From a virus (Duplodnaviria > Caudoviricetes): a stretch of 28,117 bases of DNA. Below are positions 4,242 to 28,117 of this stretch, in pieces. The stretch lies in IMG/VR virus record IMGVR_UViG_3300012346_000372, positions 1 through 28,117 of that record, one strand, 5' to 3'. Position numbers and translations under genes: made by a program. The notes beneath the pieces were generated by a model. It ran no database searches, had not been told where the DNA came from, and saw only the letters and a program-made list of their open reading frames with translations. How positions within the stretch are numbered: position 1 is the first letter of the stretch; every line of letters starts with the position of its first letter.

Positions 4242-5264
4242 CTATCCTACGTAAAGTACATTGAATTTTTGGTTAGCAACATGCGCCCCAATAGATGCAA
4301 CAGACTTAATAAACATTTTCTCTTGGTTGTTTGCAATCTTGTCAACTTTTAAAGTGTTAACATCAGCTTGTAAATCAGTTAACCAGAAAATGTGTGATTT
4401 TCTTGCACAAATAACAACTTTCTCAGGAGTTGGAACGAACTCGATTTTTAAACCATTGTAGTAAAATTCAGTTGCTGAATCATTTACATTGAAAGGTTTT
4501 GAAAAATCAGCAGTCACGTTGTTTGCCATGATGATCATTTGTTTGTGTGACTTCGGAGCGAAGATAACAGGTAATTCTGTTTGTGCTAAAACGTCTGCAG
4601 GAATAGCAGCATAGATTTTGTCATACTCAGCTTTAATGTTAGATGAAGTAATAGTTGTTCCAGCTACTTTCACACGACCACCAACGCCAGCCGTAGCCGT
4701 TGCATTAGATGAATTGTAAATCATTTTAGTAATAACACCATCAATTTGTGATGCTGTTAAAGCCGCTACTAAAGTTTTTTCCGCAGCTCCAACTGATGTT
4801 TGTCCTGTACCAGCTGTTAACGCTGCTACTGCTGTTTGAGTTGCTGAGGTTGCACCATTCCAAAATTCTTTTTCTAATTGTAAAGAAATTTTCTTTGCAT
4901 AGATACCACCAACTACTACTCTTTCAAATTCGCTTGACATTGAATTCCACGCACCCGCTGGCATATCTCTTTTGAATCTTGAATAACGTAATGTTTCAGG
5001 GTCGAACTCATTGTACGTCATTACTTTTGCTGGAGAAACCTCTACATCAAAAGCTGATAAGTCACCGCTTGAAGTTGGTTCACCTGAAATATACGCTTGT
5101 AATGTCGCTGTTGCCGATGCTTCTGTGAAAATTGTTTCCGCTTTTACATCGTCTTCAAAAGTTACTAATGCTTTTGCAATTGTTTCATTTTCGAATAATA
5201 ATTCTTCGATAATAGGTTCAGCTGCTACTCCCTTAATGTTAACTACATTGTAAGTTATTGCCAT
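4242..5264 (-). CDS. Major capsid protein
   Basis: 340 aa after protease/scaffold; LEKEFWNG and IDG motifs; followed by a hairpin. Confidence 0.8.
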   Translation of the reverse strand: MAITYNVVNIKGVAAEPIIEELLFENETIAKALVTFEDDVKAETIFTEASATATLQAYISGEPTSSGDLSAFDVEVSPAKVMTYNEFDPETLRYSRFKRDMPAGAWNSMSSEFERVVVGGIYAKKISLQLEKEFWNGATSATQTAVAALTAGTGQTSVGAAEKTLVAALTASQIDGVITKMIYNSSNATATAGVGGRVKVAGTTITSSNIKAEYDKIYAAIPADVLAQTELPVIFAPKSHKQMIIMANNVTADFSKPFNVNDSATEFYYNGLKIEFVPTPEKVVICARKSHIFWLTDLQADVNTLKVDKIANNQEKMFIKSVASIGAHVANQKFNVLYVG

Positions 5265-15737: not shown

Positions 15738-15955
<218 letters not shown>

Positions 15956-20630: not shown

Positions 20631-21254
20631 TTACTTCCATTGTTTATTTGTATTAATTTTGTTAATATACTCTTTTTTAATTTCGATTGCTTCTGCTAAT
20701 CTTGATTTAATTAATTCAATCATAACCTCGTCACGTTCAACGATAATTTCGTGGTGATATTCTGTACCTTCATGAATAAGATAATTAAAGAAATATGCTT
20801 TATTTCTATTTGTGCATAACATTTGCATTTGCATTTGTGCGTAATACTTTTTATCTACTTCATTAGTTGCTACCAATTCAAAAAAAGTTGTTGATTTCGG
20901 ACATTTAATTTCTAAAACAGCATTGTCAGAAACTAATCCGTCTGGACTTGCTCCAGCGTGTTCATTAAATTTAAAAAAACTACAATTTGTAACATCTAAA
21001 AATTCAAGTTCTTTCAACTCTTTGAATTTAGCAAAAGCAAGCGGTTCTAAATTTATTCCTCTTTCCATGTCGAAAGATACAAAATTCTCTTCCATTTCTC
21101 CGTAAAGTTCTTCAATTGCTTTTTCGATTGCGTATGTTTTACCAGTTTCACCAAGTCCACGAACTCCTAAAAGTTTTATAATTTCGCTTGCTGAAAATTT
21201 ACCATAACGTTCTATTTTCCAATTTTCTGAACGTTGCTCGTTATTGCTTTGCAT
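20631..21254 (-). CDS. YqaJ/lambda-exonuclease family protein
   Basis: QRSENW..ER.G..SAS, MERG..LEP.A, GASPDGL, LEIKCP, YYAQMQMQM. Confidence 0.9.
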   Translation of the reverse strand: MQSNNEQRSENWKIERYGKFSASEIIKLLGVRGLGETGKTYAIEKAIEELYGEMEENFVSFDMERGINLEPLAFAKFKELKELEFLDVTNCSFFKFNEHAGASPDGLVSDNAVLEIKCPKSTTFFELVATNEVDKKYYAQMQMQMLCTNRNKAYFFNYLIHEGTEYHHEIIVERDEVMIELIKSRLAEAIEIKKEYINKINTNKQWK

Positions 21255-21829: not shown

Positions 21830-22585
21830 TTAAAATAAATTTAACTGTTCTTTACCTTCATAAATATTTAATATGTGTTTATATAAATCAATAGGCACTT
21901 TTGAACGCTCGCAATAGTCTTTTTTAATATTATAATCTTCAATATTAATAAGTCCTTTTTTAACTTTATTTAAAAAATTATTATTTGTTGTTATTCTATT
22001 ATTATTATTTTTAATATTAGTTTTTTTTAATAACATATTTTTATTTGAAAAAATAGTTGTAGGCTTTTTACTGAAATTAATTTTGTCATAACTATCATAA
22101 TAACATTTATTTAAATATCCTTTTAGATTGTTGTATTTATTTAAATATTTAAAAATCATACTACTACTTCCATTTTCAATACACCATAAATCTGGAGTAA
22201 ATTTTTTAACTATTTCCGCTGTATAAAAAGCTGTTTTTTGCCCTAATAATCTTCTTTGTTCAAAAACTTTTTTAAACTTATTAGACTTAAAATTTCTTTG
22301 CCAATATAAATTATGTTCGTTAAAATTTCTTTTATAAAGCCTTGTAAGACCTATACTAACATCAACCCAAGTTTCGCAAGGTGGACTTGCAAAAATAATA
22401 TCAGGTTTTGGTAATTTTTCTAATTTAGTTAAACAACTTTTTTTACTTAAATCCATTTTAATAAAGTTATCAGTTACAGCTGATGAACTTGGCAATCCTA
22501 TTGAATAAACAATATATTCATCTGAATTTAATTGTTGAGTTATAGCGGTTTCAGAATCAAATAAACTCCATATTACTTTTTTCAT
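21830..22585 (-). CDS. C5-cytosine DNA methyltransferase-like protein
   Basis: DIIFASPPCE (motif IV), IENG (motif VI), KKPT, ERSKVP..L; motif I degenerate (LFDSET). Confidence 0.7.
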   Translation of the reverse strand: MKKVIWSLFDSETAITQQLNSDEYIVYSIGLPSSSAVTDNFIKMDLSKKSCLTKLEKLPKPDIIFASPPCETWVDVSIGLTRLYKRNFNEHNLYWQRNFKSNKFKKVFEQRRLLGQKTAFYTAEIVKKFTPDLWCIENGSSSMIFKYLNKYNNLKGYLNKCYYDSYDKINFSKKPTTIFSNKNMLLKKTNIKNNNNRITTNNNFLNKVKKGLINIEDYNIKKDYCERSKVPIDLYKHILNIYEGKEQLNLF

Positions 22586-22696: not shown

Positions 22697-24067
22697 TTAT
22701 TTGTAATTATCAGTTAATGTAAATCCTTTTAACTCTCCGTATGCTTTGTTTAAAAGATACCAATCGTTATCATTTTTAAATTTAAAATGTGCCGTTCCTT
22801 TTTTGAAAAATTTTACTTCAAAGAATCCGAACTTATACCAAGTATTAGCAACTAATGCAAACTTATCACGATTGAATCCATACAGCCCCCCTATTGTACT
22901 ATAATTAGTAGCTGTAATGTTACATAGTACTTTAGTTAAATCATCAATTTTACGACCTCCAAATGAATCATATCTTATTTCAAGTCTGTTGTATTCAAAT
23001 TTAGCTATTCCATCAACAATAAACTTTTTGTTAAGCATGTAACCTGAATTAGTTTTCCAACCTTCAACTCCAAACCTGTTTTCGTGGGTGTACTTTGTGA
23101 AATTATCAACTGCTTCTTCTAAGGCTCTGTTAAAAGTTTCTTGACGTGTTCCTACAATTATTTCAAACATTTTGTAAATATTACGCATTGTAAATGGGAC
23201 TTTCTCTTGCGTTTCAACAAACTTGTTAATGTCTTTCATTACTCCAGAAGTAACATATTTTTCCATATTCATTTTACGGAAAATGTGGTTCCACGATTGT
23301 TTTTGGATTAACTTTCCAAAAGATTTTTTATCTGTAATTGTTTTATCGTAACCAATACTTAAAGATATACTACTCATTCCAATTTGATTAGTCATTATAT
23401 TAACAGAATCAATACTTTGACGCATTGCATCAAATAGTTTCATTGTGCCTACATAACGATTAACTAATGCACGAACTTCATTATATTGCATAATTCCATC
23501 GCCTTGCATTTCTTCTTCTTCCTCTTCCATAAAAAATCCTTCAAATTCAAAATCAGTTGAAGATATAGGTTTAAATAATCGAATTAATCCAATATCAATA
23601 CCTGTTTTTCTTTCAGCAGTTGAAAAGCAATCACCAATATTAGTACCACTACCATAATCTCGAATTAAATTACTTAATTGTCTATGTGCGTAATCTTTTT
23701 CAATTGTTGCGTAATTACAAAGTGCTACAATTTCGCAACCTTCTGGGGCAATATCCCACGCGTGCATTATGTGTCGGTCTGCATTGCTAAAAGGTGGGTT
23801 CATATAGATAGCGTTTATGTGACTTATTTCTTCTGGTTTACACTCAAAAAAATCCCCTCCTATAATGGAACACTTATTTTTTAAAACAGCTCTACAATTA
23901 TCGTTTATTTCAATTGCTAAAACTTCTTTAGCTCCGTTGTTTTGGCAATATTCAACTATATGCCCAAAACCTGCAGAAGGCTCTAATATAATTTTGTTTT
24001 TGCAATCCAATTGCATTAATTCAATTGCTTCTGGTGGTGTAGGGTAAAATTCGTTATGAAACATCAT
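22697..24067 (-). CDS. N6-adenine DNA methyltransferase with DUF4942-like C-terminal domain
   Basis: FYPTP, ILEPSAGFG, MNPPF; C-terminal WKTNS...NKKFI and FFKKGTAHFKF. Confidence 0.85.
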   Translation of the reverse strand: MMFHNEFYPTPPEAIELMQLDCKNKIILEPSAGFGHIVEYCQNNGAKEVLAIEINDNCRAVLKNKCSIIGGDFFECKPEEISHINAIYMNPPFSNADRHIMHAWDIAPEGCEIVALCNYATIEKDYAHRQLSNLIRDYGSGTNIGDCFSTAERKTGIDIGLIRLFKPISSTDFEFEGFFMEEEEEEMQGDGIMQYNEVRALVNRYVGTMKLFDAMRQSIDSVNIMTNQIGMSSISLSIGYDKTITDKKSFGKLIQKQSWNHIFRKMNMEKYVTSGVMKDINKFVETQEKVPFTMRNIYKMFEIIVGTRQETFNRALEEAVDNFTKYTHENRFGVEGWKTNSGYMLNKKFIVDGIAKFEYNRLEIRYDSFGGRKIDDLTKVLCNITATNYSTIGGLYGFNRDKFALVANTWYKFGFFEVKFFKKGTAHFKFKNDNDWYLLNKAYGELKGFTLTDNYK

Positions 24068-26241: not shown

Positions 26242-26406
26242 TTAATAAAGATTATAGTTTTTTATATGATTAATAGCTTCATTAAAGCTATAAAAACATT
26301 TATTTTCATATTTATTTAATTTTACAAATAAATAATATTCATCATAAAATTTAACTATTTTACATTTTGTGTTTTCAAAAGCTGTAAATTCAAATACTTG
26401 GTCCAT
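26242..26406 (-). CDS. Small hypothetical protein (54 aa)
   Basis: MDQVFEFTAFENTKCKIVKFYDEYYLFVKLNKYENKCFYSFNEAINHIKNYNLY*; flanked by 19-bp direct repeats. Confidence 0.5.
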   Translation of the reverse strand: MDQVFEFTAFENTKCKIVKFYDEYYLFVKLNKYENKCFYSFNEAINHIKNYNLY

Positions 26407-26407
26407 G

Positions 26408-26524
26408 TTATTTTTTAGTTTTAAAGGTTAATATTCCGCATACAATTAATGCGCCTGTCATTACAATAAAATTATCGGTACTCATTCCGATAGTTGCAAC
26501 TGATAAAAAGATAATTGTTTTCAT
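26408..26524 (-). CDS. Small hydrophobic peptide (38 aa), first gene of the leftward transcript
   Basis: MKTIIFLSVATIGMSTDNFIVMTGALIVCGILTFKTKK*. Confidence 0.5.
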   Translation of the reverse strand: MKTIIFLSVATIGMSTDNFIVMTGALIVCGILTFKTKK

Positions 26525-26545
26525 GTTTTAAATATTTTGATAGGG

Positions 26546-26618
26546 CAAATGTAAAATGAAAAAAGTTATAAAAAAAATTATTTTATATCTTTTTATTTAA
26601 AATATTTGTATATATTTG
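26546..26618. promoter_or_regulatory. Divergent promoters with candidate operator
   Basis: Minus TACATTTG 26546-26553; plus TATATTTG 26611-26618; 13/14 inverted repeat 26560-26573/26581-26594 between them. Confidence 0.6.
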
Positions 26619-26638
26619 CATAAATAAAATTATAACAT

Positions 26639-26848
26639 ATGAACATACTACAAAAATTGATTTCAGAAACAGCAAAGAATAATAACACCTTTGCAAAAAT
26701 GGTAGGTGTTACGCCTTCAAAATTATCGTTACAGATTAAAAGTAAAAATCCAATGGCGCCAGCTATTACTTACGCTAAACTATTAAAGGTAAAATTAGAG
26801 TTTGAAGAAAATGGATGTAAAATTGAATTAGATTATAGTAAAGAGTAA
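26639..26848 (+). CDS. Cro/XRE-like HTH regulator
   Basis: NNTFAKMVGVTPSKLS..I...NP.......AKLL.V; 69 aa; divergent from the early operon. Confidence 0.7.
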   Translation: MNILQKLISETAKNNNTFAKMVGVTPSKLSLQIKSKNPMAPAITYAKLLKVKLEFEENGCKIELDYSKE

Positions 26849-26974
26849 CGGTTCTCGGCTTTTCGAAGAAGCCGATTTTGAAAAAAAAATGTTCAATTAA
26901 CAACTAAATTATAATAAAGATGAAAAGTTTAAAATTAGCACTGAAACGGATTTTTTGCAAAACCGATGTTAGGC
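26843..26974. mobile_element. attC-like site 1
   Basis: TAAC-ggttc-TCGGCTTTTCGAAGAAGCCG ... CGGATTTTTTGCAAAACCGA-t-GTTAGGC imperfect inverted repeat. Confidence 0.65.
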
Positions 26975-27141
26975 GAAGTGTTCTAACTATTTGGTGTTCA
27001 GATTTGCAAGAAGGATTAGATTTATGGCAAAAAGTGTATATGCTTGATGGGTGGGATGTTGTCCAACCAATCGAAGTGAGATGGAATTGGAAAAGGTTTG
27101 ATTACTTATACACTTTTCGGATGTCCAAACATTTCGCATAA
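26920..27141 (+). CDS. Cassette-borne hypothetical protein (73 aa)
   Basis: Starts inside hairpin 1, reads through GTT in frame (KTDVRRS), and its stop TAA forms the TAAC of hairpin 2. Confidence 0.65.
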   Translation: MKSLKLALKRIFCKTDVRRSVLTIWCSDLQEGLDLWQKVYMLDGWDVVQPIEVRWNWKRFDYLYTFRMSKHFA

Positions 27142-27231
27142 CGTATGGTGCTATGAGCAGGTTTGCCTTGCAGAAATGTTCAAATTTAGCACAAATGTTA
27201 TTGGCAAACTTGCTTATAGCACGTGTTATAC
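27136..27231. mobile_element. attC-like site 2
   Basis: GCATAAC-gtatg-GTGCTATGAGCAGGTTTGCC ... GGCAAACTTGCTTATAGCAC-gt-GTTATAC; 20-bp stem with two G-T pairs. Confidence 0.75.
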
Positions 27232-27288
27232 GCTGGCACGGTAAATTCAGCAGAAACTTTATTTGAAAAACTAAAAGAAAAAATAAAA

Positions 27289-27867
27289 ATGAGCAAAGGA
27301 GATTTTACAACATTAGGAGCATCAGCACATTCAAAAGAAGAACGTGAAGAAAACGATTTTTATGCAACAGATCCGAAAGCATTAGAGATATTCCTTGACG
27401 AAACAGGAATTGAATTGCGAAACGTATGGGAATGTGCTTGCGGAGAAGGGCATTTAGCAAAAGTATTAGATGCAAGAGGACTGCTTGGAAGATCAAGTGA
27501 TTTGATAGATAGAGGTTATGGGGTAACAGAAAGTAATTTCTACTACTCTTCTGAAATATGGGAAGGTGATATTTTAACAAATCCACCATACGTAGATGCA
27601 ATGAAATTTTGCCAACACGCTCTTGATTGTGTAGATGAAGGAAGCAAAGTAGTAATGCTGATGCGTATTCAATTTTTGGAAGGGCAAAGACGTAAACCGT
27701 TTTTACTTGCGAACCCTCCAAAGTATGTATATGTAAGTAGTTCAAGATTATTACTTGCAAAAAATGCAGACTTTGTGAAATACAATACACCCTCTGCCAA
27801 CTGTTATGCTTGGTATGTATGGGAAAAGGGATTTAAAGGCGAAACTACTTTACGTTGGTTTAATTAA
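27289..27867 (+). CDS. Cassette-borne amino (N6-adenine-type) DNA methyltransferase
   Basis: REENDFYATDP, VWECACGEGHL, DILTNPPY, FLEGQRR, YAWYVWEKG; ATG at 27289 after an A-rich leader. Confidence 0.88.
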   Translation: MSKGDFTTLGASAHSKEEREENDFYATDPKALEIFLDETGIELRNVWECACGEGHLAKVLDARGLLGRSSDLIDRGYGVTESNFYYSSEIWEGDILTNPPYVDAMKFCQHALDCVDEGSKVVMLMRIQFLEGQRRKPFLLANPPKYVYVSSSRLLLAKNADFVKYNTPSANCYAWYVWEKGFKGETTLRWFN

Positions 27868-27937
27868 AATGTGTGTGGGGAAATTTTAATTTTTTTTTCT
27901 CACAAATGTTCAATCGAAGAACGAATGTAGTGCTTGC

Positions 27938-27994
27938 GTATAACCAGCGGAGCTTTGCGAAGGCGTTTGCGCTTGCGCAAAGGTCTAGTTGGGA
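27938..27994. mobile_element. attC-like site 3 (short)
   Basis: GTATAAC-cagcggag-CTTTGCGAAGGCG-tttg-CGCTTGCGCAAAG-gtcta-GTTGGGA. Confidence 0.7.
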
Positions 27995-28058
27995 GAAGGT
28001 CTGAAAGAGCTTCTTCCTTTGGAAAGCTCCACTGGTTGGGAAAAAGTCGGAGACTTTT

Positions 28059-28117
28059 TCCCAACGTTCTGCATATTAACGATGTGGCATATTTGAACAC
28101 AAACGACAACAAATAAA
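28059..28117. mobile_element. attC-like site 4, left arm only (truncated by window)
   Basis: TCCCAAC-gttctgca... preceded by a 15-mer complementary to the cassette start at 27988; right arm not visible. Confidence 0.45.

Follow-up and report, generated by a model that had tools for sequence, protein, structure and literature searches.

Known cassette systems

The hallmarks of integron attC sites are AAC/GTT cores, strand exchange at AA|C, matched ends, and one better-folding strand (Nivina et al. 2016, PMC5027507). The hairpin strand is the bottom strand by attC convention, and in the same paper, cassettes facing the promoter are stated not to have been observed in integrons. The I2 helix of the integrases, which docks extrahelical bases and prevents a second exchange, is held to be the innovation that enabled these enzymes to use folded single strands, and a Xer-like ancestor has been proposed (PMC7790495). 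With IntegronFinder 2, almost no complete integrons were reported in Bacteroidetes (PMC9024848). Further integron literature includes Cury 2016 (PMC4889954) and Ghaly 2021 (PMC8618304).

Integrase-less clusters of attC-like sites, accompanied by methyltransferases, were described in virulent phages as phage CALINs (Qi et al. 2023, PMC9892861). These were treated as canonical attC sites and were rare (17 CALINs in 10,705 genomes); they include that of Polaribacter phage P12002L. The text of that study, as far as accessible, neither sets the sites apart as a family nor names a cognate recombinase, and it reports no systematic inversion and no comparative shuffling. In Bacteroidota, rAID-1 elements on the chromosomes of gut Bacteroidales carry genes for immunity (Ross et al., bioRxiv 10.1101/471110). 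They start with a XerD-family recombinase, behind which stand genes of the same direction, separated by integron-like repeats, and they are defined by a 5′ XerD-like recombinase >44% identical to BF9343_RS08045; site structure, recombination data, and phage arrays are absent from the description as available. Finally, the attP of CTX phage (IMEX) is a folded single strand with unequal central regions of 12 versus 5–7 bp (PMC4246890, PMC5357621). There, an enzyme without I2 performs one strand exchange, which is resolved by replication (PMC4246890).

An array of hairpin-bounded units at the end of a phage contig

The window analyzed here is the whole of viral record IMGVR_UViG_3300012346_000372 (28,117 nucleotides), a linear contig with 80% completeness and 31% GC. 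Its minus strand carries genes for a terminase, a portal protein, a tape-measure-like protein, a helicase, an SSB (DUF3127), a YqaJ exonuclease, and two methyltransferases (methyltransferase-like genes at 21830–22585 and 22697–24067, outside the array). The plus strand from 26639 carries an HTH-like gene and then the array, as listed below.

20631–21254, minus strand: YqaJ-like exonuclease gene (PF09588, E 4.7e-19), outside the array; it bears on homologous recombination as an alternative
26546–26553, minus strand: divergent match to the same TAnnTTTG motif as in the next line
26611–26618, plus strand: TAnnTTTG match, 20 nt 5′ of the HTH-like gene
26639–26848, plus strand: HTH/Cro-like gene, 69 aa, which anchors the array on the left and is fixed; the first TAAC core supplies the TAA of its stop codon
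26846–26849, plus strand: first TAAC core, where identity with relatives ends
26847–26970, plus strand: site S1, AAC...GTT hairpin; spacers of 10 and 6 nt; the AT-rich loop contains the ATG of the next ORF
26849–27141, plus strand: unit 1, 293 bp, S1 plus cargo; matched ends 26968–26982 and 27128–27142
26920–27141, plus strand: unit-1 ORF, 73 aa, with its start in the hairpin loop and its stop codon within the next TAAC
27140–27227, plus strand: site S2; spacers of 9 and 6 nt; 18/18 arm positions paired (two G:T), no bulge
27142–27943, plus strand: unit 2, 802 bp, S2 plus a DNA methyltransferase gene; matched ends 27225–27239 and 27930–27944
27289–27867, plus strand: DNA methyltransferase gene, 192 aa, NPPY motif (phrog_799, E 5.6e-53)
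27942–27990, plus strand: site S3 in the family register; spacers of 9 and 6 nt; outer arm 27988–28002 with G:T at position 11
27944–28064, plus strand: unit 3, 121 bp, 51% GC, no convincing ORF
28063–28117, plus strand: site S4, represented by its 5′ arm and some of the loop; cut off by the contig end and resembling the 5′ arms of the family

Each unit runs from AA|C through the hairpin and GTT into its cargo and on to the next TAA. The attI-side end of the array lies past the contig end, and Logan contigs begin at 28063 with different upstream sequence.

The matching of cargo ends was analyzed. An earlier note, made from the letters alone, had described three complete hairpin sites and the start of a fourth, with the two ends of each cargo complementary at 13 of 15 nt. 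All coordinates and 15-mers were correct, and the 13/15 matching held for 26968/27142, 27225/27944, and 27988/28065. The remaining nine ways of pairing a GTT end with an AAC end of the window gave 4–8/15. Among non-cognate pairs of family ends, 53 of 26,718 (0.2%) reached 10/12 outside the core. The predicted circles of 293, 802, and 121 bp were likewise confirmed when measured from AA|C to AA|C. Flanks across one hairpin, which the note found to match less well, scored 4.55/12 over 288 sites, compared with 8.6/12 within cargos. The proposed 15-nt outer complementarity also held, since the family match drops to background at position 16, and the arm asymmetry of 3–4 nt was seen in 242 of 268 site calls, an offset count that depends on a caller tuned on this family's geometry. 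The note had seen no clear extrahelical G/T, and S2 is indeed bulge-free, while S1 and S3 are mismatched and gap-free over the first 12 arm positions.

Fold stability was compared with that of shuffled sequences. None of 200 shuffles was as stable as S2 (z −4.5) and two were as stable as S3 (z −3.0). S1 alone was equaled by 25 of 200 (z −1.3), and its lowest-energy fold was a local hairpin; because this fold is weak alone, what identifies S1 is its arm pairing and its family sequence rather than energy. All sites and junctions folded better on the plus strand, the circle junctions by 3.9–5.6 kcal/mol. The window genes sit on this better-folding ("bottom") strand and are thus inverted compared with canonical cassettes. 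As to the hairpins being mere terminators, which the note had set against its own reading, no terminator-like site was called on the plus strand of 26400–28117. Rfam matches were absent from the array; elsewhere in the window, weak microRNA matches fell on an (AT)n tract. At 15761–15815, ~36 nt of pure (AT)n between G-rich and C-rich arms form a near-perfect intergenic palindrome, possibly an origin or a cruciform. A loose structure-only site finder made many false calls across the window and was dropped; the fixed-geometry caller used instead, with a background of ~18 calls per 413 kb of shuffled sequence, called no site on the minus strand of the window.

The unit-1 ORF had no family matches. 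Its lone viral match (locus L381) was rejected as homology, since the hairpin-coded start accounts for the match and the interiors differ. The HTH-like gene, which is 91–97% identical in five relatives, had no matches in Pfam, PHROG, or NCBIfam; of three rows listed by the ESM Atlas, one was an XRE cluster, 16% of whose members carry HTH_3 (score 0.92), no more than a lead. TAnnTTTG, which we take to be the Bacteroidota −7 promoter element, occurs 62 times in the window against 51.6 expected, and the match at 26611–26618 is suggestive of an array promoter by its position alone. A sigma-70 scan was uninformative (3 matches versus 6.8 expected). In L162, L163, L164, and L165, 200–600 extra nt with a short duplicated promoter stretch lie between the window's 26643 and the HTH start, and the region 5′ of the gene appears to be a second variable spot in these loci. 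Flavobacterium phages make up 46 of 63 records among the best cultured matches to the array, so the phage likely infects Flavobacterium-type bacteria.

Unit 3 differs in design. The 5′ arm of S3 has a second, symmetric partner at 28016–28037 (20/22 paired), and a perfect 14-bp hairpin at 28035–28065 ends the unit; S3 can thus be read in two registers, the GTT at 27988 marking one. The segment 28016–28048 is an inverted near-copy of the unit's own circle junction. The unit has two mutually exclusive folds (z −7.2), and the symmetric one is the predicted minimum in both array and circle (−39.5 and −41.2 kcal/mol). The same design with other sequence was found in L164 and L091, which gives three cases, including the window, among 425 sequences; an exact search of viral contigs for the terminal hairpin gave 0 matches. 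Unit 3 was present in Logan contigs of four runs from four studies, with loose ends at 27941–27942 and 28065–28068. A variant at 28031 in three of the four runs repairs one symmetric mismatch, and the listed changes to the family register include one GTT to GTA. In contig X14, unit 3 is followed by sequence resembling the attI-like motif beside the recombinase of host genome G098 (register ± one base). On the minus strand the unit ends in a terminator-like hairpin, whose L164 counterpart has a TTCG loop, and an RNA role is plausible for unit 3 alone.

Site family, content change, and recombinase

A motif derived from S1 found 82 viral stretches, and S1 shares one sequence family with 67 other distinct seed sites. 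In 60 of these 68 distinct sites, the best pairing left 6 nt after AAC and 2 before GTT, the 5′ side being fixed by the search pattern. Read as recombinase arms, the site is YAA, 9–10 nt, inner arm, loop, inner arm, 6 nt, and TTR; the hairpins have 15–25 nt of similarity in common. Over 187 cargos (161 loci plus the window), the ends matched on average at 8.6/12 beyond the core, compared with 4.6 under shuffled pairing (best of 200 shuffles, 4.9). The 134 cargos with at least 8/12 were taken as well matched; their ends covary, with all four Watson-Crick pair types at positions 6–9 and 12–14, and position 11 is G:T in 120 of them. The longest ORF lay on the hairpin strand in 119 of 121 phage cargos of at least 200 nt and in 70 of 71 phage cargos of another count. 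Because the attC convention makes this the bottom strand, the phage genes are inverted. The ORF start appears to lie inside the upstream site for 57 of the 119 ORFs.

The content of the array was compared among relatives. Fixed content and order, which the earlier note had named as evidence against its proposal, were not observed: both differ, with breakpoints at the TAAC core. All five relatives were identical to the window at 56–57 of 60 nt up to 26849 and at 20–27 of 60 nt after it, and each carries different cassettes. The stretch 27137–27957, spanning unit 2 from its TAAC to just beyond the next TAAC, is 90% identical in a 169-kb viral contig (L083) with other neighbors, and the unit-2 cargo also stands behind another hairpin in L086. 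Among 19 methyltransferase loci examined, the same methyltransferase had different matched ends, clearly for window/L083/L086 and L087 and more weakly for L097 and L089; the remaining loci gave no match or no candidate. Of the cultured Flavobacterium phages, seven records were retrieved and four compared. Here, the loss of a single 506-bp unit of mumin6-1 from mumin6-3 is exact, with no more than 7 nt common at the joint, and snork9-1 has blocks 99.5–100% identical in a changed order.

Breakpoints were then counted in 120 arrays with 685 called sites. Of 53 distinct internal alignment ends, 33 lay within 8 nt of AA|C and five near G|TT, each against 3.4% expected, and 15 lay at neither core. 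The breakpoints expected by the earlier note at AAC/GTT were thus concentrated at AA|C, with few at GTT. Of 26 left ends, 13 fell at −3 from AA|C, where TAAC begins; the exact crossover bond is masked by core letters common to both sides. The hairpin and cargo changed partners at the GTT side in the five ends above, in L086, and between mumin and snork; such changes fall outside a one-crossover model. In addition, L381 (1424–1814) has the unit-1 hairpin type and nearly the same end pair, including the position-5 mismatch, around an unrelated interior. The partner changes and this end pair suggest that the whole circle-form site may be transferable to new genes, perhaps by homologous recombination. 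No circle junctions were listed among assembled contigs of sequencing runs; no run contained half of the query words, and no RNA run was listed as containing the sequence. A joint from 26846 to 28063 (X3), which would skip all three units, was not counted, as its side is 24 nt and the intervening letters are undefined.

In L162, the first site after the HTH gene (4536–4640) keeps its 3′ arm and GTT and has lost its 5′ arm, and another site has TACC for TAAC; both appear to be signs of decay. The arrays of L163 and L164 end in YAA-CTTGT followed by the same small gene, with a spacer resembling the G098 host attI-like motif. The array end of L165 differs from these, and all three arrays end in simple non-hairpin sequences.

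As the earlier note had observed, no integrase lies in the window: PF00589 gave no matches in this 80%-complete record, nor in four relatives (three at least 90% complete). To be active, this array would need a recombinase supplied in trans, and it may be inactive. Among the first 161 loci, a motif scan gave two recombinase candidates, and that of L076 lies directly after nine sites. Around the 80 best viral relatives of L076, 268 sites were upstream on the recombinase strand versus 20 downstream, with 34 and 23 on the other strand, and 51 of 54 viral loci with at least 2 kb upstream had at least two sites. In 32 of 47 rows, some of them duplicates, the last cargo closed on a non-hairpin TAA-N6-TAT-type motif 23–97 nt ahead of the recombinase match; this motif beside the recombinase is a putative attI-like site.

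The recombinase was closest to archaeal XerA in the PDB and NCBIfam, below all cut-offs, and aligned to IntI4 in two pieces. Its Lys-to-His spacing was 59–65 in 20 of 20 family proteins, compared with 66 in XerA (4a8e) and 107 in IntI4 (2a3v). TIGR02249 scored 151 bits against a cut-off of 265, with the match breaking where ~42–48 residues are missing, and the XerC/XerD models scored ~160 bits against 330. The likely enzyme of the array is this short Xer-like tyrosine recombinase, not IntI, and its association with the arrays points to its being cognate. Since I2 docks extrahelical bases, its absence fits the bulge-free S2. The nearest cultured-phage match to the recombinase was Ingeline (39%). 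Host recombinases of L422, L423, L307, and L309 have N-terminal extensions of 80–190 residues, which the phage versions (~270 aa) lack.

The 80 best genome matches of the recombinase were mostly from Bacteroidota. Association with sites was weaker in chromosomes (7 of 63 loci with at least two upstream sites, among 80 loci), partly because many contigs end just after the gene. In many of the host loci L294–L373, no more than a few hundred bases separate the recombinase gene from the end of its contig, which suggests assembly breakage at the arrays. Host arrays had the same offsets as phage sites and G:T at position 11 in 7/11 and 5/10 cargos. However, host genes run in the canonical direction, with the hairpins on the non-coding strand (11/11 and 10/10 cargos). 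Of 121 genomes sampled from the likely host genus, that of F. erciyesense, 64 had the recombinase at E 1e-45 or better, and 55 had the site motif; the reversed control gave 19, with at most two matches each. Long arrays of the same family adjoin the recombinase in two host genomes, G019, where the listed site matches span 890–1101 kb, and G098 (199–231 kb). G019:C1:885000–1101000, a stretch of >200 kb of which two 20-kb pieces were examined, has same-strand sites beside a divergent recombinase and is superintegron-like. The sites form one Bacteroidota family common to phages and hosts, and supply of the recombinase in trans by the host is plausible. In this respect, the earlier note's host or distant tyrosine recombinase is predicted for this array and found beside arrays in other phages and in Bacteroidota chromosomes, whereas its phage-resident platform is borne out for the array in this phage but is not phage-only.

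Explanations and meaning of the array

The family resembles integrons in its AAC/GTT cores, probable exchange at AA|C, cassette-specific matched ends, and one better-folding strand with G:T. It also has a simple, putative attI-like site beside a tyrosine recombinase, divergent and co-directional chromosomal layouts, and arrays of tens to 200 kb in host chromosomes. Unlike integrons, the recombinase lacks the I2-containing insertion, and no IntI gene was found at the array in the 80%-complete record. Unlike attC, the arms are offset by 3–4 nt, S2 has no extrahelical base, the spacers are 9–10 and 6 nt, and the matched ends extend over 15 nt (7 in attC) with a fixed G:T. In contrast to integron cassettes, genes in the phage arrays run inverted, and many of them start in the loop; host arrays keep the canonical direction. 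The integron cassette signature that the earlier note had recognized, AAC/GTT hairpins and within-cassette end complementarity, stands; the IntI insertion of the associated enzyme, extrahelical bases in S2, and the canonical direction of the phage genes are missing.

Similarly, the window array is like the phage CALINs, and attC1 of P12002L has a layout similar to the sites here (PMC9892861). The rAID-1-type layout is seen in host loci L345 and G098, a likeness by layout alone; unlike rAID-1, the window array holds a methyltransferase gene, an orphan ORF, and an ORF-less unit in a phage, and has no recombinase in the window. The likeness to CTX attP is one of geometry only, with 9–10 versus 6 nt here. 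CTX, however, integrates its whole genome at dif irreversibly through host XerCD, whereas here small units stand in arrays, and the dedicated recombinase adjoining arrays of the family is far below the XerC/XerD cut-offs. In the mainly open-access literature covered, the site family together with its recombinase was not found described as a system. The distinct cassette system that the earlier note thought possible is supported by the separate site family and the likely I2-less enzyme; parts of the system are already in print as phage CALINs and rAID-1.

We consider it highly probable that the array consists of at least three units that vary at a common TAAC boundary and were likely moved as circles by an Xer-length tyrosine recombinase supplied by a host or another phage. 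With the same good confidence, we regard it as a mobile cassette array that would work as integrons do but fails the IntI, extrahelical-base, and orientation tests. According to this model, the plus strand would fold, and in the circle the hairpin would gain a 15-bp outer arm made of the two cargo ends. The resulting pair of binding arms would enclose an overlap with 6 nt on one side and 9–10 nt on the other. The enzyme would exchange one strand at AA|C with a second folded site or with the double-stranded YAA-N6-TAT site beside the recombinase gene, and replication would resolve the junction. The unequal overlap, as in CTX phage attP, would block a second exchange and so replace the IntI I2 helix and extrahelical bases, while the G:T at position 11 might help strand choice. 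Array genes would be read from the HTH promoter, and the methyltransferase might protect against host restriction.

It is unlikely that phage Red-like homologous recombination on similar hairpins swaps the units, with the recombinase association historical and the array a relic. The phage does encode the YqaJ exonuclease and an SSB, a tyrosine recombinase was found neither in the record nor in four relatives, and the 15–25 nt of hairpin similarity and the joins that change at the GTT side fit such exchange. However, the mumin6-3 joint has only 7 nt in common, and left ends concentrate at the start of TAAC rather than spreading across the hairpin. Homologous recombination would not select for a folded circle junction, which the unit-specific matched ends and their fixed G:T require. 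It may, nevertheless, act alongside the recombinase.

We hold it highly improbable that the sites are simply the attC sites of a CALIN, on which a canonical IntI in the host acts. The AAC/GTT cores, the probable exchange at AA|C, the matched ends, and one better-folding strand fit attC hallmarks (PMC5027507), the family enzyme reaches 151 bits on TIGR02249, and IntI1 recombined five of six phage sites (Qi et al. 2023, PMC9892861); since one of the two Polaribacter phage sites, P12002L_attC2, was among these, an IntI enzyme could act on such sites. Yet P12002L_attC1, apparently of the 9/6 layout according to the supplement, failed with IntI1 (PMC9892861), the score is below the cut-off with ~42–48 residues missing at the break in the match, and S2 has no extrahelical base in a family with offset arms. 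Moreover, such arrays are common in a phylum with almost no complete integrons (PMC9024848). An RNA role for the hairpins, whether as terminators or as signals for processing or translation, within a mosaic made by ordinary intergenic exchange has scarcely any probability in our view. In phages they lie on the coding strand with G:T(U) pairs, many ORFs appear to start inside the upstream site, and unit 3 and its L164 counterpart offer the minus-strand terminator-like hairpin and TTCG loop. In host chromosomes, however, the same sites lie on the non-coding strand; the outer arms pair only across the cargo or in the circle, and S1–S3 had neither plus-strand terminator calls nor Rfam matches.

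Returning to the proposed recombinase-moved cassette array, a broader reading appears to us evenly balanced between true and false. The family would be a second, I2-less integron lineage of Bacteroidota and their phages with a CTX-like unequal overlap, in which the I2 helix was either never gained or lost. Phages would have reversed the platform for their own anti-restriction and early genes, and the recombinase-less ones would borrow a host enzyme. Unit 3 would be a mobile two-fold switch of its own excision or read-through, or a trapped intermediate of cassette birth.

The window array is a short, recombinase-less example of the family, cut by the contig end and holding one unusual unit. Inverted phage cargo and common end pairs around different interiors bear on how cassettes arise. 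If true, a natural I2-less cassette system would make the Xer-like origin of integrons testable, and a phylum reported as nearly integron-free (PMC9024848) would hold large overlooked arrays. In Muminvirus isolates, reduced plating on one host accompanied the lack of one methyltransferase (Nilsson 2020, PMC7077304), and the accessible text of that paper contains neither the word "integron" nor "integrase". Cultured Muminvirus isolates carry such arrays, and the plating-linked methyltransferase may lie inside or outside them. If the proposed system is true, phages would have a programmed way of swapping methyltransferases.
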